Assembly (NCBI RefSeq): GCF_022846255.1
Contig: NZ_AP025682.1
Source: Escherichia coli
GTDB lineage: Bacteria; Pseudomonadota; Gammaproteobacteria; Enterobacterales; Enterobacteriaceae
DNA length: 64,000 bases
Direction: 5' to 3' (one strand)
Position numbers and translations under genes: made by a program. Numbering within the stretch: the first letter of the stretch is position 1; the number at the start of each line of letters is the position of its first letter. Below are positions 15,289 to 62,774 of this stretch, piece after piece. Under the pieces are notes generated by a model, which saw only the letters and a program-made list of their open reading frames with translations, was not told the origin of the DNA and searched no databases.

Positions 15289-15490
15289 ATTAACTACCGG
15301 ATGGCACTTATGTGCTATCCGATACCACTCTTCATTAAAGTCTGTGGGTTATCCTTAATTGCAATTATTTTGAGCGAGATGACTTGTTCCCGGCATAAGA
15401 TACTCGTCAATACAACACGTATTATTAAGATTTTCCTCAGCTAAACATCTATAGTCATTGTCGTTAATAAAAAACGACAGGCGATAGGGT

Positions 15491-16449: not shown

Positions 16450-17579
16450 CAGAGCTGGAAGTTACTCAAATCGTCGGTGTCCACTTCCGCGTCAATCTGC
16501 CCGACCAGATAAGAACTGACTTCCACTTCCTGCGGAGCAACCTGCACGTTATCAGACACCAGCCAGGTGTTGATCCACGGGATCGGGTTGGAACGCGTCT
16601 GGAACGGCAGATCCAAACCGACTGCCTGCATACGGATATTGGTGATGTATTCAACGTACTGGCAGAGGATGTCTTTATTCAGACCAATCATCGAACCATC
16701 ACGGAACAGATAATCCGCCCAGTCTTTCTCTTGCTGTGCCGCCTGGACAAACAGGTCATAGCACTCCTGCTTACATTCTTCGGCAATTTCCGCCATCTCC
16801 GGATCATCCGCGCCGCTGCGCAGCAGATTCAGCATATGCTGGGTGCCGGTCAGGTGCAGGGCTTCGTCACGGGCAATCAGGCGAATAATCTTGGCGTTGC
16901 CTTCCATCAATTCGCGTTCTGCAAAGGCAAAGGAACAAGCAAAGCTGACGTAGAAACGAATCGCTTCCAGCGCGTTAACGCTCATCAGGCAGAGATACAG
17001 TTTTTTCTTCAGCTCGCGCAGGCTGACGGTCACGGTTTTACCGTTGACGGTGTGGGTGCCTTCGCCCAGCAAATGCCAGTAGCTGGTCATCTCGATCAGT
17101 TCATCGTAATAGCGGGAAATGCCTTCTGCGCGTTTCTGGATCTGCTCGTTAGTGACGATATCGTCAAACACAACCGACGGATCGTTAACGATATTACGAA
17201 TGATATGAGTATAGGAACGGGAATGAATCGTTTCTGAGAACGCCCAGGTTTCTACCCAGGTTTCCAGTTCCGGGATCGAGATCAGCGGCAGCAGTGCCAC
17301 GTTCGGACTGCGACCCTGAATGGAATCCAGCAGCGTCTGATATTTCAGGTTGCTGATAAAGATGTGTTTTTCGTGTTCAGGCAGTGCCTGGTAATCGATA
17401 CGGTCGCGGGAGACGTCAACTTCTTCCGGACGCCAGAAGAAAGAGAGCTGCTTTTCGATCAGCTTTTCGAAGATGTCATATTTTTGCTGATCGTAGCGAG
17501 CCACGTTGACCGGCTGACCAAAGAACATCGGTTCTTTGAGCTGATCATTTTTCGTCTGTGAAAAGGTGGTATATGCCAT
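16449..17579 (-). CDS. nrdB: Class Ia ribonucleotide reductase beta subunit, 376 aa
   Basis: Starts [17 protein letters not shown]; ORF-track start 17723 is an extension through REP sequence. Confidence 0.9.
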
Positions 17580-17602
17580 GAATGTGTCCTGTTGGGAGTT
17601 TA

Positions 17603-17718
17603 ATGCCGGATAAGGCATTTTACGCCGCATCCTGTGCCTGATGCGACGCTGGCGCATCTTATCAGGCCTACAAAACCGAGCCGTAGGCCGGATAAGGCGT
17701 TCACGCCGCATCCTGCAT
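17603..17718. repeat. REP/BIME cluster in nrdA-nrdB intergenic region
   Basis: gccggataaggc...gccgcatc and gcctgatgcgacgc...cttatcaggcctac palindromic REP units. Confidence 0.8.
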
Positions 17719-17725
17719 CTCAATA

Positions 17726-20011
17726 TCAGATCTTACATGCGCCGCTTTCGCAGCCATCGTCCTGGATTGACGGCACCAGATCGTCTTGTGCGTCTTCAGC
17801 ACCGTCACGGGTGTTCTGATAATACAGCGTTTTGACCCCGAATTTGTAGGCGGTGAGCAGGTCTTTCAGCAGTTGCTGCATCGGCACTTTTCCTGACGGG
17901 AAGCGTGACGGATCGTAGTTGGTGTTAGCAGAGATCGACTGATCGATAAATTTCTGCATGATACCCACCAGTTGCAGGTAGCCATCGTTACCCGGCATTT
18001 CCCACAGCAGTTCATAGGCGTCGTGCAGATGCTCGTAGTCCGGCACCACCTGGCGCAGAATACCGTCTTTCGACGCTTTGATGCTGACGTAACCACGCGG
18101 CGGTTCAATACCGTTAGTGGCGTTAGAGATCTGCGAAGAGGTCTCGGACGGCATCAGGGCAGAAAGCGTGGAGTTACGCAGGCCGTGCGTTTTGATTGAC
18201 TCACGCAGTGCTTCCCAGTCGTAATGCAGCGGCTCATTAGCGATGGCATCCAGATCTTTCTTATAGGTATCGATCGGCAGGATCCCTTTCGCGTAAGTGG
18301 TTTCGTTAAACCACGGGCACGCCCCTTGCTCTTTCGCCAGCTCATTAGACGCTTTCAGCAGGTAATACTGAATGGCTTCGAAGGTTTTATGCGTCAGGTT
18401 GTTGGCGCTGCCGTCGGAGTAGCGTTTACCATGCTTCGCCAGGTAGTAAGCGAAGTTGATCACACCAATACCCAGCGTACGACGACCCATCGCTCCACGT
18501 TTGGCGGCCGGGATCGGGTAATCCTGATAATCCAGCAGCGCGTCGAGTGCGCGTACTGCCAGAATTGCCAGCTCTTCCAGTTCATCCAGGCTGTTAATTG
18601 CGCCCAGGTTGAAAGCAGACAGCGTACACAGCGCGATTTCACCGTTCTCGTCGTTGACGTCGTTCAGCGGTTTGGTCGGCAGGGCGATTTCCAGGCACAG
18701 GTTAGACTGGCGCACTGGCGCGATGGCCGGATCAAACGGGCTATGGGTATTGCAGTGGTCAACGTTCTGAATATAGATACGACCGGTAGATGCACGTTCC
18801 TGCATCATCAGCGAGAACAGCTCAACGGCTTTCACACGCTGCTTGCGGATGCTGTCGTCTTTCTCATATTTGGTGTACAGGCGTTCAAACTCTTCCTGAT
18901 CGGCGAAGAACGCGTCGTACAGCCCCGGTACGTCGGACGGGCTGAATAGGGTGATATCTTCACCTTTCAGCAGACGGGTATACATCAGTTTGTTGATTTG
19001 TACCCCGTAGTCCATATGACGCACGCGGTTGCCTTCCACCCCACGGTTGTTTTTCAACACCAGCAGGCTTTCCACTTCCAGATGCCACATCGGGTAGAAC
19101 AGTGTTGCCGCACCGCCACGCACACCGCCCTGAGAGCAGGATTTCACCGCTGTCTGGAAATGTTTGTAGAACGGAATACAACCGGTATGGAACGCTTCGC
19201 CACCGCGAATCGGGCTACCCAGCGCACGAATACGCCCGGCGTTGATGCCGATCCCGGCACGCTGGGAAACGTATTTAACAATCGCGCTGGAGGTGGCGTT
19301 AATGGAATCCAGGCTGTCGCCGCACTCGATCAGCACGCATGAGCTGAACTGACGAGTCGGGGTACGCACGCCGGACATGATTGGCGTCGGCAGCGAAATT
19401 TTAAATGTGGAAACCGCGTCGTAAAAACGCTTCACGTATTGCAGGCGCGTTTCACGCGGGTAGTTCGAGAACAGGCACGCGGCAACCAGAATATAAAGGA
19501 ACTGGGCGCTTTCGTAGATTTCGCCGGTCACGCGGTTCTGTACCAGATATTTGCCTTCCAGCTGCTTAACGGCAGCATAAGAGAAGGTCATATCACGGTC
19601 GTGATCGATAAACGTGTCCATCTGCTTGAACTCTTCTTCCGTGTAGTCTTCCAGCAGATGATTATCGTATTTGCCCATCTCGACCATTTTCACCACATGG
19701 TCGTACAGTGCAGGCGGCTCAAACTGACCGTAGGCTTTTTTACGCAGGTGGAAGATCGCCAGACGTGCGGCGAGATACTGATAATCCGGCGCATCACGGG
19801 AGATCAGGTCTGCGGCAGCCTTGATAATGGTTTCGTGGATGTCAGAGGTCTTGATACCGTCATAAAACTGAATGTGGGAGCGCAGCTCGACCTGGGAAAT
19901 CGAAACGTTATGCAGTCCTTCTGCCGCCCAATCCAGAACGCGATGGATTTTGTCGAGATTGATGCGCTCTGTGCTACCGTCGCGCTTTGTCACCAGCAGA
20001 TTCTGATTCAT
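17726..20011 (-). CDS. nrdA: Class Ia ribonucleotide reductase alpha subunit, 761 aa
   Basis: 761 aa; ATP-cone N-terminus; C-terminal Cys pair. Confidence 0.95.
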
Positions 20012-20075
20012 GTATGTCGTACCTGTTTTTCAATAGCTTCATGCAGACTACCTGTAGTGAGGGAAGCTGCTAAGA

Positions 20076-20121
20076 ACACTATATATAGGGGGTATGTTTG
20101 GGATTCACTGCAAGATAGTGT
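20076..20121 (-). promoter_or_regulatory. Two candidate NrdR boxes in nrdAB leader/promoter
   Basis: acactatatataggg (20076-20091) and cactgcaagatagtgt (20106-20121) resemble the NrdR palindrome acaCwAtATaTwGtgt; centres ~30 bp apart. Confidence 0.5.
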
Positions 20122-20151
20122 GAAACTGGCCCTCTTGCAAGTGCATAACTT

Positions 20152-20160
20152 TGTGGATAA
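20152..20160 (-). promoter_or_regulatory. DnaA box upstream of nrdA
   Basis: Minus strand reads TTATCCACA, a perfect DnaA box. Confidence 0.65.
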
Positions 20161-20692
20161 CTCAGGAAGGAAAAAGTGGCTTCCGCGCACCTTAGGTCAG
20201 ACAAGGTGTCCGGGAAAGTCAATGGGAAGAGAAAAATTTGTTAAAAATAACCGTTCGGTGAATTCTTGAACGGTAAAATAGGATAGGTAAATTGATATAG
20301 ATGGTTTATTAATCTTGTTGCTAATGATTGCCAAAATTGATCTAGGCACAAGTCGTCACATAATCTGATGTATCAGTTGTGGTCAATATATAAGCGAGTG
20401 TAAGCGATTGTTGAGTCGGAAATGGTTGTTTTATATTCGGTTATTGTTAAATACTAAGCCAATTTGTTACTTTTGTATTTATTATAAGAATATTATTTAT
20501 TGCTTTAATTCAGTTTAAATATAACCGATTTACCTTAAAGTTATTAATTTGAATTGTGATGCATCTAAATTAATTATCAGATAATAACAAAATAGTTATT
20601 ACATCAGGGGCAGAATTTACAAAAGAAAAATACCCTATATCGCATAATGCGATTAAATACGCCATCTTATAGAAAATGATGGTTAGATGAAT

Positions 20693-23600
20693 ATGCGGAT
20701 TATCTCTCTACGCAAGGAGTATTTATCTTTACTCCCGTCAATGATTGCATCTCTTTTCTCTGCTAACGGTGCCGCAGCGGTCATTGATTCATGCCAGGGA
20801 TATGATATCAAAGCGAGCTGTCAGGCCAGCAGGCAAAGCCTTTCGGGTAATATACAGGACTGGAGCATCGCGGATGGACAATGGTTGATTTTTTCGGGTA
20901 TGGTCAATAATACCAGCGGTGGCGCAGTATTTTTGCAGCACAGTGCTGAATTTACGATATCACCACAAAATGAAACAGGGATGACCCTGTTTGCTGATAA
21001 CTCGGTTAGTGGCGAATATAATAATGGTGGGGCTATCTTTGCTAAAGAAAACTCAACGATAAATCTTGCGAATGTTATTTTCGACAGTAATGTTGCAGGA
21101 GGCTATGGCGGAGCAATCTATTCTGCCGGTACCAATGATACCGGTGCCGCCGATTTACGTGTCACTAACGCCGTATTTCACAATAACATCGCTAATGACG
21201 GCAAAGGCGGTGCAATTTATACCATCAATAATGACGTCTATTTAAGTGATGATGCTTTTAATAATAATCAGGCATATACATCAACCAGCTATAGTGATGG
21301 GGACGGCGGTGCCATTGATGTTACGGATAATAGTACGGATAACACACATCTTTCAGGAAAAACGATAATTAATAATACCTCCTTTACCAATAACTATGCA
21401 GAAGGTTATGGCGGAGCAATTTATACCAGCAGCACCACATCCCCGTATCTTATTGATATTTCTGTTGATGATAATTATGACCAAAACAATGGTGTGATGA
21501 TTGATGAAAATAACAGCGCCTCGGGATATGACCATTCGGCGACGGCAGCGGCGGGGGGCTTTATGTATATCGGTCATAGTGTGGCTGAATTTAACATTGC
21601 CGCCGATAAAACGCTGGTAATAGGCAACACCAGCAACGATGGTGCGATTGATTCTCTTGCCGGAACGGGAGTCATCGTGAAAGAGGGAGCGGGAGAGTTA
21701 GTCCTCAATGCCGACAATAATGCGTTTACCGGCGAGATGAGTATCCAGAATGGCGAGGTGACGCTGGGGCGCAGCGATGAGTTAATGAATGTCGGCGACA
21801 CGCACTGTCAGAGCGATCCGCAGGATTGCTTTGGTCTGATGGTCGGCAGCACTGTTCATTCTGAGTATCAGGCAGAACTGAATGTTGGCAATACACAACA
21901 AACGTTTGTGCACTCATTAACCGGTTTTGCTAATGGCATTTTGAATATCGACGCAGGCGGCAATGTTACCGTAAACCAGGGCGGTTTTTCCGGCTCGATT
22001 CAGGGTGAAGGACAGTTGACGGTAGCGCAAGATGGCAGCTATCTCCTGACAGGGGCGCAGTCGATGGCATTAACCGGCGATATTGTGGTGGAAGATAACG
22101 CCGTATTGTCGCTAGCGGGGAATCAGGCCGATTTACGGGCAATGCAGAGCGATCCGCAATCGATCGTGCTAAATGGCGGAGTATTGGATCTCTCTGATTT
22201 CACCACCTGGGATGGCGATAGCTCATACAATGACGGTCTGCAAATCAGCGGCAGCGGGGGGACAGTGATTGGCAGTAATGATGTCGTTGATATCAGCAGT
22301 GGCGATGATTTACATATTGGCGGCAGTGATGCCAGCCAGAATGGCGTTTATGTCGTCATTAATGCGGGGGATCAGCGCGTAACGCTGGCGAATAACAACG
22401 GTTATCTCGGTAATACGCAAATCGCCTCCGGTACGCTTGAAGTCAGCGATAATTCGCAATTGGGGGACACAAGTTACAACCGTTCAGTGATCTTCACAGA
22501 TCCCCAACAACACAGTGAAATGGATGTGACGACTGATGTTGACACTCGCTCGGCTACAACAGGTCAGGGCAGGAATATTGAAATGCGCGCTGATGGCGAA
22601 ATACACGTTGAGGATGGCGTAGATACGCAATGGGGCGGATTGATGGCGGATAGTACCGGGCAACAACTGGATAGCGTAAGCACGTTGACTAAAAGTGGCG
22701 GCGGTACGCTGGAGTTGACCGCCAGCGGCACTGCGACGTCTGCGGTACGTGTGGAGGACGGAACGCTAAAAGGTGAAGCGGAGAATATTATTCCTTATGT
22801 TTCTTCACTGTGGGTGGGGGAAGACGGTGTTTTTGAAACCGGGCAAAATCAGGATATTCGCTCAATCGATGCCACCTCTGGCGGCGATATCGACATAACC
22901 GATGGTACTGTGTTGCGATTGACGCAGCAGGATACGAACCAGGTGCTGGATGCCTCGCTGTTTAGCGGCGACGGTACGCTGGTGAATGCCACCGATGGCG
23001 TGACGCTGGCAGGTGAGCTTAATACCAACCTTGAAACTGACAGCCTGACTTATCTTTCCGACGTGACGGTCAATGGTGATCTAACTAATACTTCCGGTGC
23101 TGTCAGTCTGCAAAATGGCGTCGCTGGCGACACGCTCACGGTAAACGGTGATTACATCGGTGGCGGTACGTTGTTTCTCGACAGCGAATTAAACGGCGAT
23201 GACTCGGCAAGCGACCAACTGGTGTTGAACGGCAATACCTCGGGTAACACGACCGTGGTGGTTAACCCCATTACTGGCATTGGTGAACCGACATCTACAG
23301 GTATTAAAGTGGTTGATTTCGCAGCTGATCCCGCGCAGTTTCAAAACAATGCGCAGTTCAGTCTGGCAGGAAGCGGCTACGTCAATATGGGGGCGTATGA
23401 CTACACGCTGGTGGAAGATAACAACGACTGGTATCTGCGATCACAAGAAGTCAATCCGACGCCGCCGCCCGATCCAGACCCGACTCCAGATCCTGATCCC
23501 ACGCCGGATCCCGACCCAACCCCCGACCCAACCCCCGACCCGGAACCTACGCCTGCCTACCAGCCGGTGTTGAATGCCAAAGTTGGTGGATATTTTAATA

Positions 23601-24463
23601 ACCTGCGGGCGGCAAATCAGGCATTTGTGATGGAGCGACGCGATCACGCTGGTGGCGATGGTCAGACGCTGAATTTACGCGTTATCGGCGGGCGTTATCA
23701 TTACACGGCGGTAGGGCAGTTGGCTCAGCATGAAGACACTTCTACGGTGCAGCTTAGCGGCAACCTGTTTAGCGGGCACTGGGGTGATGATGGCGAGTGG
23801 ATGCTTGGGATTGTTGGTGGCTACAGCGATAACCAGGGCGACAGCCGCTCGAATATGACCGGAACTCGCGCCGATAACCAGAACCACGGTTATGCCGTTG
23901 GGCTGACCTCAAGCTGGTATCAGCACGGTAATCAGAAGCAGGGGGCCTGGTTGGATAGCTGGCTGCAATATGTGTGGTTTAACAATGATGTTTCCGAACA
24001 AGACGATGGCGTGGATCATTACCACTCGTCGGGGATTATCGCCTCGCTGGAAGCCGGTTATCAGTGGTTACCGGGGCATGGTGTGGTGATTGAACCGCAG
24101 ACGCAGGTGATTTATCAGGGCGTGCAGCAGGATGATTTTACCACCGCTAACCATGCGCGCGTGTCACAATCGCAGGGTGATGATATTCAGACGCGGCTGG
24201 GTTTACACAGCGAATGGCGTACTGCTGTTGGTGTCACGCCAACGTTAGATCTGAATTATTATCACGATCCCCATTCGACGGGAATTGAAGAAGATGGCAG
24301 CACTATCAGTGACGATGCGGCGAAGCAACGGGGTGAAATAAAAGTGGGAATAACGGGCAATATCAGTCAGCGAGTTTCGCTGCGTGGTAGCGTGGCGTGG
24401 CAGAAAGGGAGTGATGATTTTGCCCAGACGGCAGGGTTTTTGTCGATGACAGTGAAATGGTAA
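20693..24463 (+). CDS. yfaL: AIDA-I-type autotransporter adhesin YfaL, ~1256 aa
   Basis: Signal peptide, Asn/Gly-rich beta-helix passenger, Pro-rich linker and C-terminal beta-barrel ending in W; alternative ATG at 20687. Confidence 0.85.
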   Translation: MRIISLRKEYLSLLPSMIASLFSANGAAAVIDSCQGYDIKASCQASRQSLSGNIQDWSIADGQWLIFSGMVNNTSGGAVFLQHSAEFTISPQNETGMTLFADNSVSGEYNNGGAIFAKENSTINLANVIFDSNVAGGYGGAIYSAGTNDTGAADLRVTNAVFHNNIANDGKGGAIYTINNDVYLSDDAFNNNQAYTSTSYSDGDGGAIDVTDNSTDNTHLSGKTIINNTSFTNNYAEGYGGAIYTSSTTSPYLIDISVDDNYDQNNGVMIDENNSASGYDHSATAAAGGFMYIGHSVAEFNIAADKTLVIGNTSNDGAIDSLAGTGVIVKEGAGELVLNADNNAFTGEMSIQNGEVTLGRSDELMNVGDTHCQSDPQDCFGLMVGSTVHSEYQAELNVGNTQQTFVHSLTGFANGILNIDAGGNVTVNQGGFSGSIQGEGQLTVAQDGSYLLTGAQSMALTGDIVVEDNAVLSLAGNQADLRAMQSDPQSIVLNGGVLDLSDFTTWDGDSSYNDGLQISGSGGTVIGSNDVVDISSGDDLHIGGSDASQNGVYVVINAGDQRVTLANNNGYLGNTQIASGTLEVSDNSQLGDTSYNRSVIFTDPQQHSEMDVTTDVDTRSATTGQGRNIEMRADGEIHVEDGVDTQWGGLMADSTGQQLDSVSTLTKSGGGTLELTASGTATSAVRVEDGTLKGEAENIIPYVSSLWVGEDGVFETGQNQDIRSIDATSGGDIDITDGTVLRLTQQDTNQVLDASLFSGDGTLVNATDGVTLAGELNTNLETDSLTYLSDVTVNGDLTNTSGAVSLQNGVAGDTLTVNGDYIGGGTLFLDSELNGDDSASDQLVLNGNTSGNTTVVVNPITGIGEPTSTGIKVVDFAADPAQFQNNAQFSLAGSGYVNMGAYDYTLVEDNNDWYLRSQEVNPTPPPDPDPTPDPDPTPDPDPTPDPTPDPEPTPAYQPVLNAKVGGYFNNLRAANQAFVMERRDHAGGDGQTLNLRVIGGRYHYTAVGQLAQHEDTSTVQLSGNLFSGHWGDDGEWMLGIVGGYSDNQGDSRSNMTGTRADNQNHGYAVGLTSSWYQHGNQKQGAWLDSWLQYVWFNNDVSEQDDGVDHYHSSGIIASLEAGYQWLPGHGVVIEPQTQVIYQGVQQDDFTTANHARVSQSQGDDIQTRLGLHSEWRTAVGVTPTLDLNYYHDPHSTGIEEDGSTISDDAAKQRGEIKVGITGNISQRVSLRGSVAWQKGSDDFAQTAGFLSMTVKW
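23456..23553 (+). repeat. Short tandem repeats encoding Pro-Thr/Asp linker (PTPPPDPDPTPDPDPTPDPDPTPDPTPDPEPTP) in yfaL
   Basis: Visible 6-18-bp periodicity (ccggatcccgaccc / cccgaccc). Confidence 0.7.
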
Positions 24464-24485
24464 TCGCTGTCTGACCGGCACTGTT

Positions 24486-24567
24486 GCCGGATGCGGCGTA
24501 AACGCCTTATCTGGCCTACGGGGAGCATTTGTAGGTCTGATAAGACGCGGCAAGCGCCGCATCAGGC
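24486..24567. repeat. REP/BIME element between yfaL and ubiG
   Basis: gccggatgcggcgtaaacgccttatctggcctac ... gtaggtctgataagacgcggcaagcgccgcatcaggc. Confidence 0.8.
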
Positions 24568-24602
24568 TTGGCTCGGTTGCCGGATGAATCCAAACAACAA
24601 CC

Positions 24603-25325
24603 TCACTTATTCTGCGTGTGCAGCATATAGTTCACATCCACGCCGGGGCCGAGCTTAAAGGAATTAGTGATAGGGTTGTAATGCAGCCCGGTCATATGCC
24701 GTTCTTTAAGACTGGTCTGATCCACCCAGCCCAGCAATTCTGCCGGTTTAATAAACTTCTTCACATCATGTGTACCTTTAGGCACCATGCGCAAAATATA
24801 TTCCGCACCAACCACCGCCATCAGCCATGACTTGCCGTTGCGGTTAAGCGTCGAGAAAAAGACATCGCCGCCCGGTTTCACCAGTTGCGCACAGGCTCTG
24901 ACCACTGACTGAGGATCGGGGACGTGCTCCAGCATCTCCATACAGGTCACCACGTCATACTGTCCGGCATGTTTTGCCGCGTGCTCTTCCACGGTTTCCT
25001 GCACGTAATCCACCTGAATGCCGCTTTCCAGTGCGTGCAGTTTTGCCACCTGCAATGGCTCAAAGCCCATATCCAGACCGGTCACCGTCGCGCCCTCCCG
25101 CGCCATACTCTCGGCCAGAATGCCGCCGCCACAACCGACATCGAGCACCTTTTTGCCAAATAAACCGCCAGCACGCTCGGCAATATAGCCCAGACGCAGC
25201 GGGTTAATGCGGTGCAGCGGTTTGAACTCACCTTCAAGATCCCACCAGCGGGAGGCGACGGCTTCAAATTTAGCGATCTCTTCGTGGTCTACGTTGTGGT
25301 TTACCGGCGATTTTTCGGCATTCAT
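24603..25325 (-). CDS. ubiG: Ubiquinone biosynthesis O-methyltransferase, 240 aa
   Basis: Starts [20 protein letters not shown]; SAM motif VLDVGCGGG; ORF-track start 25373 is an extension. Confidence 0.9.
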
Positions 25326-25418
25326 TGGCACTTCTACTCCGTAATTGGCAAGACAAACGAGTATATCAGGCATTGGATGTGAATAAAGCGTATAGGTTTA
25401 CCTCAAACTGCGCGGCTG

Positions 25419-25427
25419 TGTTATAAT
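25419..25427 (+). promoter_or_regulatory. gyrA promoter extended -10 (TGnTATAAT)
   Basis: tgttataat lies 45 bp upstream of the gyrA ATG. Confidence 0.5.
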
Positions 25428-25471
25428 TTGCGACCTTTGAATCCGGGATACAGTAGAGGGATAGCGGTTAG

Positions 25472-28099
25472 ATGAGCGACCTTGCGAGAGAAATTACACC
25501 GGTCAACATTGAGGAAGAGCTGAAGAGCTCCTATCTGGATTATGCGATGTCGGTCATTGTTGGCCGTGCGCTGCCAGATGTCCGAGATGGCCTGAAGCCG
25601 GTACACCGTCGCGTACTTTACGCCATGAACGTACTAGGCAATGACTGGAACAAAGCCTATAAAAAATCTGCCCGTGTCGTTGGTGACGTAATCGGTAAAT
25701 ACCATCCCCATGGTGACTCGGCGGTTTATGACACGATCGTCCGTATGGCGCAGCCATTCTCGCTGCGTTACATGCTGGTAGACGGTCAGGGTAACTTCGG
25801 TTCCATCGACGGCGACTCTGCGGCGGCAATGCGTTATACGGAAATCCGTCTGGCGAAAATTGCCCATGAACTGATGGCTGATCTCGAAAAAGAGACGGTC
25901 GATTTCGTTGATAACTATGACGGCACGGAAAAAATTCCGGACGTCATGCCAACCAAAATTCCTAACCTGCTGGTGAACGGTTCTTCCGGTATCGCCGTAG
26001 GTATGGCAACCAACATCCCGCCGCACAACCTGACGGAAGTCATCAACGGTTGTCTGGCGTATATCGATGATGAAGACATCAGCATTGAAGGGCTGATGGA
26101 ACACATCCCGGGGCCGGACTTCCCGACGGCGGCAATCATTAACGGTCGTCGCGGTATTGAAGAAGCTTACCGTACCGGTCGCGGCAAGGTATATATCCGC
26201 GCCCGTGCTGAAGTGGAAGTTGACGCCAAAACCGGACGTGAAACCATTATCGTCCACGAAATTCCTTATCAGGTGAACAAAGCGCGCCTGATCGAGAAGA
26301 TTGCGGAACTGGTAAAAGAAAAACGCGTGGAAGGCATCAGCGCGCTGCGTGACGAGTCTGACAAAGACGGTATGCGCATCGTGATTGAAGTGAAACGCGA
26401 TGCGGTCGGTGAAGTTGTGCTCAACAACCTCTACTCCCAGACCCAGTTGCAGGTTTCTTTCGGTATCAACATGGTGGCATTGCACCATGGTCAGCCGAAG
26501 ATCATGAACCTGAAAGACATCATCGCGGCGTTTGTTCGTCACCGCCGCGAAGTGGTGACTCGTCGTACTATTTTCGAACTGCGTAAAGCTCGCGATCGTG
26601 CTCATATCCTTGAAGCATTAGCCGTGGCACTGGCGAACATCGACCCGATCATCGAACTGATCCGTCATGCGCCGACGCCTGCAGAAGCGAAAACCGCGCT
26701 GGTTGCTAATCCGTGGCAGCTGGGCAACGTTGCCGCGATGCTGGAACGTGCGGGCGACGATGCTGCGCGTCCGGAATGGCTGGAGCCAGAGTTCGGCGTG
26801 CGTGATGGTCTGTACTACCTGACCGAACAGCAAGCTCAGGCGATTCTGGATCTGCGTTTGCAGAAACTGACCGGCCTTGAGCACGAAAAACTGCTCGACG
26901 AATACAAAGAGCTGCTGGATCAGATCGCGGAACTGTTGCGTATTCTTGGTAGCGCCGATCGTCTGATGGAAGTGATCCGCGAAGAGCTGGAGCTGGTTCG
27001 TGAACAGTTCGGTGACAAACGTCGTACTGAAATCACCGCCAACAGCGCAGACATCAACCTGGAAGATCTGATCACCCAGGAAGATGTGGTCGTGACGCTC
27101 TCTCACCAGGGCTACGTGAAGTATCAGCCGCTTTCTGAATACGAAGCGCAGCGTCGTGGCGGGAAAGGTAAATCTGCCGCACGTATTAAAGAAGAAGACT
27201 TTATCGACCGACTGCTGGTGGCGAATACCCACGACCATATTCTGTGCTTCTCCAGCCGTGGTCGCGTCTATTCGATGAAGGTCTACCAGTTGCCAGAAGC
27301 TACTCGTGGCGCGCGTGGTCGTCCGATCGTCAACCTGCTGCCGCTGGAACAGGACGAACGTATCACCGCGATCCTGCCGGTGACCGAGTTTGAAGAAGGC
27401 GTGAAAGTCTTCATGGCGACCGCTAACGGTACGGTGAAGAAAACCGTCCTCACCGAGTTCAACCGTCTGCGTACCGCCGGTAAAGTGGCGATCAAACTGG
27501 TTGAAGGCGATGAGCTGATCGGCGTTGACCTGACCAGCGGCGAAGACGAAGTAATGCTGTTCTCCGCTGAAGGTAAAGTGGTGCGCTTTAAAGAGTCTTC
27601 TGTCCGTGCGATGGGCTGCAACACCACCGGTGTTCGTGGTATTCGTTTAGGCGAAGGCGATAAAGTCGTCTCTCTGATCGTGCCTCGTGGCGATGGCGCA
27701 ATCCTCACCGCAACGCAGAACGGTTATGGTAAACGTACCGCAGTGGCGGAATACCCAACCAAGTCGCGTGCGACGAAAGGGGTTATCTCCATCAAGGTTA
27801 CCGAACGTAACGGTTTAGTGGTTGGCGCGGTGCAGGTAGATGACTGCGACCAGATCATGATGATCACCGATGCCGGTACGCTGGTACGTACTCGCGTTTC
27901 GGAAATCAGCATCGTAGGCCGTAACACCCAGGGCGTAATCCTTATCCGTACTTCGGAAGATGAAAACGTGGTGGGTCTGCAACGTGTTGCTGAACCGGTT
28001 GACGAGGAAGATCTGGATACCATCGACGGCAGTGCCGCGGAAGGGGACGATGAAATCGCTCCGGAAGTGGACGTTGACGACGAGCCAGAAGAAGAATAA
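25472..28099 (+). CDS. gyrA: DNA gyrase subunit A, 875 aa
   Basis: Unmistakable GyrA sequence; QRDR wild-type (Ser83 TCG at 25718-25720, Asp87 GAC at 25730-25732). Confidence 0.97.
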
Positions 28100-41819: not shown

Positions 41820-43245
41820 TAATGCCAGTCAGTTAAGCAACTGACTGGCTCTTTTTCGGGGCTGTGGGGTATTTCCAGGGCCTCTCCTTTACCACTCTCG
41901 GGAAGGCCCTTTCCCTTCTTGTCGGTAATTTCACAAGTTGTCCCATACTTGCAAGATCGCGCATCAGCTCCGGTATACGTCCCGGTGAAGCGCCCTGCAA
42001 TGTCATCAGCATTCTCATCACCATTCCACATGATTCTGAGAAACTCAGTTGATTCGGCCAGTAACCTTTCAGATGTTCCGCCATTTTAATCATCTGATAT
42101 CTCACCAGATTATAAGCCAGTAAGACACCCCACAGCTCTTGCTCCACAAGCTCCGGTTTTTTACTTCTCAGCGTCAGCCTGCTCAGTTGCATCGTCTGTT
42201 TTATCTCCCTGTATCCCAGTTCGATTTCCCAGCGATGACTGTACAGATCCGCCATTTCTCCTCCGGGGAAGCGCATGGCGTCCGTCATCGACGTCAGCAG
42301 ATGGCAGACTTTTCCTTTGCGCGTCACGGTCAGCAGGCGGGCTGTCACTTCATTTCCCAGTCCCGGCCACTTTTTTCGTGCCTGCGGGCTGGTTTTCAGC
42401 TTCACCAGATGATCGCCTTTACCCAGTTTTCTGATCTCTTCATATTGCGCTCCCTTTCTGAGAGGTATCATCCAGTGGCGGTGTTCTCCCGCCAGGCTCC
42501 AGGCATTTAACAGTCCCAGTGAGTAATAACCTTTATCCATTAACGTCAGAGTGTTATCGCCGGTTTGTTCTATAAGTTGCTCAGCAAGCTCATTTTCGCT
42601 GTTCTTCATCGTGCCGAAGGCTGCAGCCGTCAGCAGATGGCTGGTCAGTTCCATCTGGCAGACCATTTTGACCTGCGGGTAGAGCGCCGGGTTCCCGGCA
42701 TGTGTCTGGCGGGGGAAGGCTGCATCGTTCTCTGGTGTATCCGGTGTGCGCCAGAACACACCATCGATGGCCAGCAGGGTCAGGCCGCACCAGTGCGGAT
42801 GCGGCGTGGCGTTATGCCAGAGCTGCGCTGTTTTCGTGAACACGCGGCGGACAGCCTCACTTCCCAGGCGCTGGCGGGCCTGAATAACGGCACTGGGGGC
42901 AACGAAGGGGCGATTGCCCGGCAGCATGATGTCCAGGCGATTCACAATCTGGTGAAGAGGTTCTTTACGCTCAAGCGCCATGCCAACAATACACCAGACC
43001 ATCATTTCGAGGGGAAGACGGCGCTTGCGTAGCGTTACAGTACCTGATTCGGCAAGGCAACGAGAGATGAGTTCGGGGTCGAGGTAATCCCCCAGAGAAG
43101 TCAGTGGGTTACGCAGAGAATCGTAACGGGATACCAGATCAAGAGCCTGTCCAATGTGCATAAAAAAATCCGGAAACAAGTGAGCGTTTCCGGATTCTTA
43201 CACAGCCACTGGATCGGTCAACTGATCCTTAACTGATCGGCATTA
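41820..43245 (-). mobile_element. IS4 insertion sequence, complete (1426 bp)
   Basis: Terminal inverted repeats TAATGCCAGTCAGTTAAG / TAATGCCGATCAGTTAAG (16/18 match); 1426 bp between them; single 442-aa IS4-family transposase; flanked by 12-bp direct repeat. Confidence 0.9.
41833..43161 (-). CDS. insG: IS4 transposase InsG, 442 aa
   Basis: Starts [16 protein letters not shown]; the ORF-track 448-aa version begins 6 codons upstream. Confidence 0.9.
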
Positions 43246-44464
43246 CACCGACAGGGGCTGTTTTTGCCTCACCAGCATTACAGACTGGCTGACGAATCTG
43301 CGGCGGAAGATCCTCAGAGAAAATGATCGGGCCTGAGTTCATCACGACGGCGCGTTCAATGACGTTGGAAAGCTCTCGAATATTACCCGGCCATGACCAG
43401 GCGGTAAGCAGCGACATTGCCATCGGATCGATGTCGATAATATCGCGCTGATTCTCACTACTGAATTTTTGCAAAAAGTGATTAGCTAACAGGGAAATAT
43501 CTTCCCGGCGATCGCGCAGAGGCGGCAGTATTAAATGAATAACGTTAAGGCGATAAAAGAGATCTTCACGGAAGGTGCCTTCTTTCACCATTGCCTGCAA
43601 GTCGCGGTTGGTGGCAGCAATGATGCGGATATCAACTTTTATGGTCTGATGACCGCCAATCCGTTCAAATTCCCGTTCCTGCAGAATGCGTAGTAATTTG
43701 GCTTGCAGTACCAGCGGCATTTCGCCAATTTCGTCGAGGAGCAGAGTACCTTCGTTGGCACGTTCAAATAATCCCTGACGTAAGGTTTGTGCACCAGTAA
43801 ATGCGCCTTTTTCATGACCAAACAGTTCACTTTCGAGCAACGATTCCGGCAGCGCCGCGCAGTTGACTTTAATGAACGGCCCCTTTGCCCTCCGCGAATT
43901 GTAGTGAATCGCTCTGGCAATCAACTCTTTCCCGGTGCCGCTTTCACCGCTAATCAAGACGCTGGCCTGAGAAAGGGCAATTTTGGCGGTGTCTTTGCAG
44001 ATGTCCATCATCGCCGGGCTGTTGGTGAGAATGTGCCCCCATTGCCAGCTGGTGCTCAGTGCCTGGTGCAGATGACGGATCTCTTTTTTCATTGACTGGA
44101 GTTGTAAAGCGCGCTGAACGATTAAATTCAACTCATCGAGATCAAACGGTTTGATAACATAGTCGAAGGCTCCGCAGCGTAGTGCTTCGACGGCGGTTTC
44201 CACTTCAGCATAGGCCGTCATCAGAATAACGGGTGTCCGGGTCTCATGGCTGCGCATCTCCTTGAGTGCCTTGATGCCGTCCATCTCTGGCATGCGGATA
44301 TCCATCAACACCACGTCAGGGTGAATATCGGCAAACAGGTGTAATGCTGTGCGCCCGTTGTTCGCACAATGTGTTTCGAATCCTTGTAGTGCAAAAGCGG
44401 TGCTCAGCATACGGCGAACATTATCTTCATCATCCACAATAAGGATGCGATTAATAGCAGTCAT
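43229..44464 (-). pseudogene. atoC: atoC 5' part: receiver plus sigma-54 AAA+ domains, truncated by IS4 (406 native codons + VMPIS from the IS end)
   Basis: ORF of 411 aa ends 17 nt inside the IS4 terminal repeat; GESGTGKE Walker A and GAFTGA motif present; HTH absent. Confidence 0.85.
43246..43257. repeat. IS4 target-site duplication, right copy (CACCGACAGGGG)
   Basis: Identical to 41808-41819. Confidence 0.9.
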
Positions 44465-52842: not shown

Positions 52843-53153
52843 TCGTGTTTATGACCTGTTAAAACTTCGCGAAGTGATAGGGCAGTATAAAGGGTACAGT
52901 GTGAAATTCCAGACTCTTACCTGATTGATGATTCTCTATTCTCCAGTGATATTTATCATCCTGCATTGGGGGAAATAGATGTACAAGCGCCATTTTGCTG
53001 TACAAATAACCTACAAAAAGCCTAACGAAATTAATTGCAAATAAACGAAGATTGCTGGAAATTATGCTGATGTTAATTATTTGTGAAATAGTTAACAAGC
53101 GTTATAGTTTTTCTGTGGTAGCACAGAATAATGAAAAGTGTGTAAAGAAGGGT

Positions 53154-53246
53154 AAAAAAAACCGGATGCGAGGCATCCGGTTGAAATAGGGGTAAACAGA
53201 CATTCAGAAATGAATGACGGTAATAAATAAAGTTAATGATGATAGC
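53154..53246 (-). ncRNA. micF: MicF antisense sRNA (93 nt), repressor of ompF translation
   Basis: Minus strand reads GCTATCATCATTAACTTTATTTATTACCGTCATTCATTTCTGAATGTCTGTTTACCCCTATTTCAACCGGATGCCTCGCATCCGGTTTTTTTT, ending in a hairpin plus U8 terminator; divergent from ompC. Confidence 0.9.
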
Positions 53247-53401
53247 GGGAGATATTCTAGTTGCGAGTGAAGGTTTTGTTTTGACATTCAGTGCTGTCAA
53301 ATACTTAAGAATAAGTTATTGATTTTAACCTTGAATTATTATTGCTTGATGTTAGGTGCTTATTTCGCCATTCCGCAATAATCTTAAAAAGTTCCCTTAT
53401 A

Positions 53402-53461
53402 TTTACATTTTGAAACATCTATAGCGATAAATGAAACATCTTAAAAGTTTTAGTATCATAT
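53402..53461 (+). promoter_or_regulatory. OmpR-binding sites C1-C2-C3 of the ompC promoter
   Basis: tttacattttgaaacatcta / tagcgataaatgaaacatct / taaaagttttagtatcatat match the known three tandem 20-bp OmpR boxes. Confidence 0.75.
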
Positions 53462-53580
53462 TCGTGTTGGATTATTCTGCATTTTTGGGGAGAATGGACT
53501 TGCCGACTGATTAATGAGGGTTAATCAGTATGCAGTGGCATAAAAAAGCAAATAAAGGCATATAACAGAGGGTTAATAAC

Positions 53581-59382: not shown

Positions 59383-59409
59383 GACCTGGCGGACTGCTGC
59401 CGCCAGGTC
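59383..59409 (+). terminator. Stem-loop downstream of yojI (candidate terminator)
   Basis: Perfect 10-bp stem gacctggcgg/ccgccaggtc with 7-nt loop; followed by AT-rich sequence but no clean U-run. Confidence 0.45.
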
Positions 59410-59575
59410 AATATTCTAAAAATCCCTTCATTTCTAATAACCCTATAATTAATCAACGAAATTATAATGTTTCTAAAATTAGAATATAATTTATAAACAT
59501 TATTTAAATGTTGTTACTTAAGTGTTACCGTTGATGCCGCGCAAATCTCACCTGCAATAAAGCGACTAAAAGTAA

Positions 59576-61234
<1,659 letters not shown>

Positions 61235-61383: not shown

Positions 61384-61872
61384 TTAGCGAACTACCGCGT
61401 TGTCAATTTTCTCTTCCGCCTTCCAGACGCGGTACTTCACATCTACATTGTCTGGCGTATACACCACGATCGGCAGCTTGCTGTTATAACGCAGCATTCC
61501 GGCATCGCCCAGATACGCGGTGACAAATTTCTTCTCTTTCTTGCCATCCGGGCAGGCCATCATCGTCGAAACCGGGGAACTGACTTTATCAAAGACATAA
61601 TAATCATAGCCCCAGCCTTCCAGCGTTTTGCTTTCCAGCTTCCCGCCGAGACGATGCAAATTGCAATCGACTTCCAGCGTCTGGCCGATTAACAGTTCTA
61701 CTTTCAGGGTAGATTCATCTTCTTGCGGGGTTAACTGAATCACCTGGCGCTTCATGCCTTTTTCAGCTTGTGGATAAGGTGCGATTTTTTCCAGTGGCTG
61801 GACGCTTTCTGCCGCCCAGGCGGAAGTGGTGGCGAAAGCGGCAAACAATACTGCAGGTAGAATGGTCTTCAT
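61384..61872 (-). CDS. eco: Ecotin, periplasmic serine protease inhibitor, 162 aa
   Basis: Starts [20 protein letters not shown]; ORF-track start 61893 is an extension. Confidence 0.9.
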
Positions 61873-62131
61873 TTTTTTGCTTTCCTTCTTCATTTATAGG
61901 TTTTCACCGATGATGACGCTGAAGGTTAACATATTCATCAGATTTATTAATTTGCTTTATGAATAACTTAAAGAACATTCAGATAATTTTACCTGCTCTT
62001 TTAGTGTTAAATTCTGATGAGAAAACAAACCAGCAGAAATATCTCTGGCGAATTAATCGATATATAAATATGTTTATAACCATTTGAAATGTGAGCAAAA
62101 GCCCGTTTTTGCCACGCTTCCCGCCACTCTT

Positions 62132-62166
62132 TTGATCCTGCTACAGGTTTTACCCCGATCGGGGTA
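62132..62166 (+). promoter_or_regulatory. napF promoter: FNR-like site (62132-62145) and NarP/NarL 7-2-7 palindrome (62151-62166)
   Basis: ttgatcctgctaca, then perfect palindrome TACCCCGATCGGGGTA 20 bp downstream; spacing fits the known -64.5/-44.5 arrangement; taatat -10 candidate at 62187-62192. Confidence 0.65.
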
Positions 62167-62279
62167 TGCATCTTTGACACATCCTTTAATATCTTAGCGG
62201 CTATAAAAATGGCTTATTAATTATGCGGTTTATTTGGTCGCTCTCAATTTTCAGAGCGCGTTAATGATGGAAGGTCAAT

Positions 62280-62774
62280 GTGAAGATTGATGCATCCCGT
62301 CGGGGCATACTCACTGGTCGCTGGCGCAAAGCCAGTAACGGTATCCGTCCGCCCTGGTCCGGTGATGAATCTCATTTTCTGACCCATTGCACCCGCTGCG
62401 ACGCCTGTATTAATGCTTGTGAAAACAACATTCTGCAACGCGGCGCGGGTGGCTATCCGAGCGTTAATTTCAAAAATAACGAGTGCAGCTTCTGTTACGC
62501 CTGCGCGCAGGCTTGCCCCGAATCGCTATTTTCTCCGCGCCACACCAGGGCCTGGGATTTGCAGTTCACCATTGGGGACGCGTGCCTGGCGTATCAGTCA
62601 GTTGAATGCCGCCGCTGTCAGGATAGCTGTGAGCCAATGGCAATTATCTTTCGCCCGACGCTCTCCGGGATCTACCAGCCGCAACTTAATAGCCAACTTT
62701 GCAACGGATGTGGAGCATGTGCAGCCAGCTGTCCGGTATCAGCCATAACTGCGGAGTATCTCCATGCACACTAA
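62280..62774 (+). CDS. napF: Ferredoxin-type protein NapF, 164 aa
   Basis: GTG start with SD ggaagg 62269-62274; multiple CxxCxxC clusters. Confidence 0.85.
   Translation: MKIDASRRGILTGRWRKASNGIRPPWSGDESHFLTHCTRCDACINACENNILQRGAGGYPSVNFKNNECSFCYACAQACPESLFSPRHTRAWDLQFTIGDACLAYQSVECRRCQDSCEPMAIIFRPTLSGIYQPQLNSQLCNGCGACAASCPVSAITAEYLHAH

Follow-up and report, generated by a model that had tools for sequence, protein, structure and literature searches.

The classical curved targets of H-NS with phased A-tracts are proU, the hns promoter and the upstream region of rrnB P1. Closer to the locus described here are the promoter islands of Escherichia coli K-12 (Shavkunov, Panyukov, Ozoline) which, according to the abstract of Panyukov & Ozoline, bind RNA polymerase, are transcriptionally defective and are associated with H-NS. 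Table 1 of Panyukov & Ozoline 2013 lists 78 promoter islands, among them 2342143_534, yfaL(-)/ypaB(-), for which the H-NS column carries the entry "A", denoting binding in the Grainger, Kahramanoglou and Oshima data alike; in the same work, the K-12 yfaL locus is called foreign by GIST, Nakamura and Price. Table S3 of Myers 2013 gives the H-NS ChIP-chip regions of this locus as 2340767–2343304 under aerobic and 2340938–2342437 under anaerobic conditions. In the genomic SELEX of Shimada 2014, performed in vitro, the spacer appears as yfaL<HNS>nrdA and contains both an H-NS site and a site for the RNA polymerase holoenzyme.

The window, a 64-kb stretch of E. coli DNA, contains a strain-specific allele of this already catalogued H-NS-bound promoter island, which lies upstream of a known cryptic adhesin gene, yfaL. 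K-12 coordinates (U00096.2 numbering) were converted to window positions via pairwise alignment. The K-12 promoter island, 2342143–2342676, falls at approximately 20209–20741 in window coordinates, and most of the island is accounted for by the AT-rich block ahead of yfaL. The H-NS regions of Myers 2013 fall at approximately 19594–22117 (aerobic) and 20448–21946 (anaerobic). In K-12, H-NS covers the AT block and the AT-rich first 1.2–1.4 kb of yfaL and, under aerobic conditions, extends over the nrd promoter too. A sequence-only reading of this DNA had proposed that the region is bound by H-NS and had named H-NS ChIP data as the check; for the K-12 orthologue the answer is positive in the ChIP sets, the Myers 2013 regions and the SELEX data. 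All of these occupancy data come from K-12, and the AT blocks of K-12 and the present strain share 86% identity. The genes and segments that make up the locus are as follows.

17726–20011, minus strand: nrdA, ribonucleotide reductase alpha subunit (RefSeq annotation of matching records).
20012–20272, minus strand: nrdA promoter/regulatory region, given as context outside the AT block; 85–93% identity across Escherichia up to 20272.
20273–20692, no strand: AT-rich block upstream of yfaL; GC 0.278, fast-evolving, with length and composition kept across Escherichia.
20441–20640, no strand: AT core; GC 0.21, the 200-bp minimum of the window; most diverged from K-12 (80–86% identity).
20693–24463, plus strand: yfaL/ehaC, an AIDA-I-type (AIDA-I family) autotransporter adhesin of 1256 aa (RefSeq annotation, Pfam).

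In the RefSeq annotation of matching records, nrdA and yfaL are divergent and separated by a spacer of 681 bp (20012–20692). The neighbors named in the sequence-only reading, the nrdA control region and yfaL, are the ones identified by annotation and Pfam. By Pfam, the yfaL product comprises an autotransporter beta-domain, an autochaperone domain and pertactin-like passenger repeats. The conserved start of yfaL is at 20693, and an ATG at 20687 is peculiar to the present allele. The first ~800 bp of yfaL (to ~21500) are also AT-rich, with a GC content of 0.37–0.47, and lie within the K-12 H-NS regions. Elsewhere in the window, an IS4 element at approximately 41820–43246 (448-aa transposase ORF, 41833–43179, minus strand) is situated among the ato genes, where it seems to lie at the 3' end of atoC or close to it, and is missing from Nissle 1917 at that place. 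Relative to the window, K-12 has 87 bp extra in the nrdB–nrdA spacer (window ~17600–17700) and 261 bp extra, consisting of LysR-family pseudogene remnants, in the glpQ–inaA interval (window ~15300–15400).

The region singled out from the sequence, 20270–20686 (417 bp), has a GC content of 0.281, as compared to 0.514 for the 64-kb window, and is the lowest 417-bp stretch in it. Segments of 417 bp with GC this low amount to 0.1% of all, and every one of them overlaps the yfaL upstream locus. The AT content is 72% over the 417 bp and 79% in the 200-bp core. The region contains 56 TpA steps (mean 18) and 21 hexamers resembling a -10 element (mean 2.9), both window maxima, and its least stable 100 bp, starting at 20476, are the second least stable in the window. 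The window-extreme GC content, TpA and -10-like counts and the low stability show that the AT-richness is real and extreme, as had been claimed for some 400 bp upstream of yfaL, and both of the A/T strings that had been quoted are present, at 20442–20461 and 20493–20526. Other AT-rich troughs of the window (GC 0.28–0.37), mapped via the Nissle annotation, are all intergenic: 59409–59607 (mqo–yojI), 53070–53486 (ompC–micF/rcsD), 61872–62288 (upstream of napF) and 556–972 (yfaZ–nudI). For the mqo–yojI and ompC–micF/rcsD spacers, Shimada 2014 likewise gives an HNS mark.

The density of promoter-like signals, for which hexamer counts serve as a proxy for PlatProm predictions, is likewise at its highest here. 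Four -35/-10 pairs are found in 20270–20686 against a mean of 0.32, the window maximum. Shuffles of the sequence give an expectation of 3.5 pairs, and no excess of pairs beyond composition is seen; promoter-like hexamers crowd the block upstream of yfaL because of composition alone. The region has the two properties of a promoter island, dense promoter-like signals over at least 300 bp and little productive transcription, the latter taken from the K-12 literature. The individual elements recognized within the block are listed below.

20289–20300 and 20334–20345, plus strand: two copies of the direct repeat AAATTGAT(A/C)TAG, 45 bp apart, with ATTGAT cores kept genus-wide.
20337–20364, plus strand: sigma70-like promoter candidate TTGATC-16-CATAAT from the hexamer scan, facing yfaL, with a leader of ~320 nt.
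20616–20622, plus strand: TTTACAA, invariant in 7/7 Escherichia sequences and among the few such motifs of the block.
20639–20653, no strand: perfect 15-bp palindrome ATCGCAT-A-ATGCGAT, 40 bp upstream of the yfaL ATG.

In Table 1 of Shimada 2014, TTGATC-16-CATAAT is given as the "constitutive promoter" of yfaL, and it is put forward there as the best yfaL promoter. It is kept in K-12 and O157; other Escherichia species keep TTGAT only and not the -10 element. The invariant TTTACAA may be a -35 element. The palindrome has one mismatch in K-12 and is not kept outside E. coli.

The finding that promoter-like sites occur at the frequency expected from composition is in keeping with a neutral origin of the block, in which the AT-richness is functionless, the DNA is either a weakly constrained, drifted spacer or the relic of an anciently acquired yfaL cassette, and H-NS binding is unselected. 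Such an origin is also compatible with the absence of clear enrichment for a specific H-NS motif: the TCGATAAATT-like 10-bp high-affinity H-NS motif has two matches in the region, each with two mismatches, which places it in the 8% tail of 417-bp windows. The tracts lack helical phasing as well, and turnover is fast, with between-species identity of 46–48% compared to ~30% by chance. A drifted spacer would not, however, be expected to hold its length (408–415 bp) and GC content (0.26–0.30) tightly despite this turnover, to be present in 5425/5426 complete E. coli genomes and rarely disrupted, or to contain even a few invariant motifs, and we consider a functionless origin quite improbable.

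The many promoter-like sites, together with short ORFs of 31–36 aa at 20408–20518 (plus strand) and 20570–20665 (minus strand), could also be taken to indicate that a small protein gene or a small RNA missed by annotation lies inside the block. None of the short ORFs of the block is open in K-12, O157 or other Escherichia. The interval 19000–22000 gives no Rfam match at E<=1, the terminator scan found no terminator-like sites, and no annotated feature lies inside the AT block among the complete genomes listed. With its reading frames closed elsewhere and neither a family match nor a terminator in place, a hidden gene is an explanation to which we give hardly any weight.

The A/T tracts had been described in the sequence-only reading as helically phased, and the DNA as a curved promoter region; these are the parts of that reading that did not hold. 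Periodicity of 10–11.2 bp in A-tract centers and in AA/TT dinucleotides was assessed in four sub-regions (the 417-bp region, the whole spacer and each half) and in none of them was it above dinucleotide-preserving shuffles, with 0.29–0.87 of the shuffles at or above the observed value. Three wedge models, with approximate parameters after the dnacurve package, predict bends only at ~20238 and ~20334, at the nrdA-proximal edge, and none of the three predicts curvature in the AT core (20440–20640). Averaged over the region, curvature places it among the top 3%, 24% or 21% of windows, depending on the wedge model. The DNA upstream of yfaL resembles those H-NS targets that are rich in AT and TpA and have a narrow minor groove; it does not match the curved-DNA type.

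The nrdA-proximal side of the spacer is occupied by the nrdA control region, in which the following elements are placed.

20112–20117: nrd -10 element.
20135–20140: nrd -35 element.
20140–20148 and 20152–20160: DnaA boxes.
20163–20178 and 20198–20213: HusR/YnfL boxes, reported in 2026.
20250–20274: inverted repeat ACCGTTC..GAATTC..GAACGGT, centered ~157 bp upstream of the inferred nrd TSS.

NrdR-box-like palindromes are also found in the nrdA-proximal 260 bp. The low-GC region, 20270–20686, overlaps the inverted repeat by its first few bp only. Reviews citing Cendra 2013 state that H-NS represses nrdAB, and reference lists name a published "upstream AT-rich sequence" and a "45 bp inverted repeat" for nrd. 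An FNR ChIP peak at K-12 position 2342590, which has been assigned to the FNR-repressed nrdAB, converts to approximately 20295 of the window, and further FNR ChIP signal is located inside yfaL.

The position of the inverted repeat, the FNR peak at ~20295 with its assignment to nrdAB, the predicted bends at ~20238 and ~20334 and the genus-wide ATTGAT cores at 20291 and 20336 would all be accommodated if the block, or at least its nrdA-proximal 70–80 bp, were the upstream regulatory region of nrdAB and not a silencer of yfaL. A Fis site, the "upstream AT-rich sequence", a 45-bp inverted repeat for cell-cycle control and an FNR site would then operate through bending or activator recruitment. This assignment is unlikely for the block as a whole and plausible for its first 70–80 bp only: the strong conservation that tracks the nrd promoter ends at ~20273, the other ~400 bp are only 46–48% identical between species, and the divergence of the block goes with the yfaL allele and not with nrdA. 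At most, regulation of nrdAB accounts for 20270 to ~20345, and not for the AT core.

Several further observations concern the nrdA control region itself. In the nrdA 5' UTR, the present allele is without 13 bp, GGAATTCTTTCCG, at 20031/20032, ~20 nt upstream of the start codon; GGAATTCTTTCCG is present in K-12, O157, E. albertii, Escherichia sp. E1V33 and another E. coli. The K-12 ORF ypaB (47 aa) corresponds to window 20126–20269 on the plus strand, opposite to nrdA and over the nrd promoter, within a long ORF at 19439–20269. It is annotated in most genomes, Nissle not being one of them, and its end is the exact start of the 417-bp region. A 2026 paper describes a HusR-dependent ypaB mRNA. In the window, the ypaB reading frame stays open far upstream of the gene, on the strand opposite to nrdA, an argument against its being genuinely protein-coding.

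Copies of the nrdA promoter are also found on mobile elements. The segment 20122–20251, which includes the DnaA boxes, the -35 element and a HusR box, has a 130-bp copy of 94% identity in phage P7, several P1 isolates and Salmonella phage SJ46, and many P1-like plasmids (235 plasmid places) have a version of the promoter segment with 77% identity and a 30-bp identical core, TTGCAAGTGCATAACTTTGTGGATAACTC. In one P1-like plasmid, the copy lies ~70 bp upstream of a homologue of the DNA polymerase III theta subunit, and in P7 it lies under the unknown ORFs upf91.4–91.7, beside IS903 (coordinates of the copies: 2501–2629 in L014 and 3001–3115 in L003). The phage and plasmid copies may represent a captured DnaA-regulated promoter. 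In an exact-match contig scan with a 26-mer of the nrd promoter, matches were confined to Escherichia, plus one 221-bp "Acinetobacter" contig that is probably contamination.

The spacer was aligned for seven sequences: the window, K-12, O157:H7, E. albertii, E. whittamii, Escherichia sp. E1V33 and a divergent "E. coli". Conservation breaks sharply at ~20273, with 85–93% identity before this position and 46–48% after it in the other species; chance identity for the composition of the block is ~30%. The collapse of identity after 20272 indicates that the left edge of the 417-bp region, at 20270, is a genuine evolutionary boundary, and the AT block is not co-conserved with the nrd promoter across species (46–48% versus 85–93%). 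The length of the block (408–415 bp) and its GC content (0.26–0.30) are maintained in every aligned sequence, covering four Escherichia species and both E. coli allele classes. Identity to K-12 along the window is distributed as follows.

nrdAB: 92–100% (mostly 96–100%).
AT core: 80–86%.
yfaL signal peptide: 96%.
yfaL passenger domain (21300–22900): 62–77%.
yfaL beta-barrel: 81–100%, with most of the barrel conserved.
ubiG and gyrA: 94–100%.

Identity to K-12 falls from ~20400 onward and through the passenger domain of yfaL, and this profile assigns the AT block to the hypervariable yfaL allele rather than to nrdA. The strongly divergent adhesin allele has core genes of 94–100% identity on its flanks. 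A 901-bp query (19900–20800), 100% identical to Nissle 1917, has matches in 5425/5426 complete E. coli genomes. Two main allele classes are seen in E. coli, with 987 genomes at least 95% identical to the window and 4375 at 80–90%. The yfaL gene and the AT block adjoin nrdA in E. albertii, E. whittamii and Escherichia sp. E1V33; given that yfaL is beside nrdA throughout the genus, it is unlikely to be recently acquired, although three predictors call it foreign in K-12, and any acquisition would predate the genus.

Individual genomes depart from this picture in several ways. Over 17000–27000, the best of the 5426 complete E. coli genomes has 98.7% identity, and Nissle is at 97–99% outside 19900–20800; a Nissle-identical stretch of 901 bp within a divergent 10 kb suggests either that the locus is mosaic or recombinant in origin or that its lineage is not represented among these genomes. 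In SCPM-O-B-8794, labeled E. coli (L010, 4250–5150), the AT block and the 5' end of yfaL are far closer to the E. albertii allele than to either of the two E. coli classes, and the nrd promoter is E. coli-like. This arrangement hints at a possible allele exchange between species with a breakpoint near window 20273. In the pig isolate UTME-10 (L006, 3826–4523; approximately window 20690), an IS1 has entered where the AT block meets the start of yfaL, and yfaL is left as a pseudogene with a truncated N-terminus. EC2001 matches the distal 56% of the AT block only; disruption of the block is otherwise very rare.

From this allele structure, we tentatively propose that the AT block may not just be a passive target of silencing and that it and the yfaL passenger domain may form a recombining allelic module with a sharp edge at ~20273, where the nrd control region ends, in which selection would act on composition and length and not on sequence; this is a possibility that we hold with some doubt. 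In such a module, the competence for silencing would be kept as the adhesin and its regulatory DNA diversify and pass from one Escherichia lineage to another, exchange being invoked because a single E. coli genome has an allele resembling that of E. albertii. If the proposal is true, the module would be a clean natural case of an H-NS platform conserved in composition but not in sequence.

Expression data for yfaL come from K-12. In the part of the anaerobic sigma70 ChIP-seq peak list of Myers 2013 covered here, consecutive peaks are at 2341575 and 2342779, the latter at the nrd promoter, with none in between. GadX ChIP-exo peaks flank the yfaL start codon, and knockout is without change in yfaL expression. 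No TSS is recorded for yfaL, and the GadX table gives no TSS distance for it. The biofilm phenotypes of yfaL were obtained with a constitutive promoter inserted ahead of the gene; that phenotypes have been studied only after such an insertion agrees with the poor expression of yfaL proposed from the sequence.

Taken together, we find it quite probable that the block at 20273–20692 is the AT-rich upstream region of the cryptic yfaL gene and acts as a platform for the nucleation and spreading of H-NS. H-NS binding is documented for K-12, and silencing of yfaL is what we infer from it, since no report of yfaL derepression in hns or hns stpA mutants was found in the literature searched. An H-NS filament on the platform would occlude or trap RNA polymerase at the yfaL promoter or promoters, such as the candidate TTGATC-16-CATAAT, and would also curb spurious initiation at the many -10-like sites, leaving yfaL silent in the laboratory. 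The filament would extend into the AT-rich 5' end of yfaL and reach the nrd control region and, because it abuts or overlaps the nrdA control region, nrdAB might also be damped. The site-specific proteins that bind at the edges of the block, FNR at ~20295 and GadX at the start of yfaL, are candidate modulators or counter-silencers.

Apart from curvature and phasing, the sequence-only reading is supported as essentially correct, and its content is already in the literature; current understanding is unchanged by the present result. The additions are modest: the conservation edge at ~20273, the maintenance of length and composition despite turnover, and the association of the block with the divergent passenger allele of yfaL. 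The locus also illustrates that H-NS territory can be recognized by a sequence-only reader from composition alone. Because length and composition are kept despite turnover, the block is a convenient natural test case for selection on H-NS platforms. In addition, a silenced, fast-evolving adhesin gene is here set against the control region of the essential, cell-cycle-regulated nrdAB, a juxtaposition that makes spreading of H-NS from the yfaL side a plausible route by which the state of the nucleoid could modulate dNTP supply.

Comparisons with described systems place the block closest to the K-12 promoter island 2342143_534, to which it is orthologous and which it resembles in the density of promoter signals, low transcriptional output, H-NS coverage and the flagging of the gene as foreign. 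The main difference is that the present strain carries the other major allele, which is 86% identical. With proU, the hns promoter and the rrnB P1 upstream region, the block has AT-richness and H-NS binding in common; unlike these regions, it is without A-tract phasing, and its AT core is without predicted curvature. The upstream regions of ycgV/ychF, yadN, sfmA and elfA and the fim switch, which Panyukov & Ozoline list as promoter islands too, are likewise AT-rich, intergenic, bound by H-NS in ChIP and located ahead of surface-adhesin genes that are silent in the laboratory. In contrast to these cases, yfaL faces away from the essential, cell-cycle-regulated nrdAB, and the control region that adjoins its block is itself reported to be modulated by H-NS.
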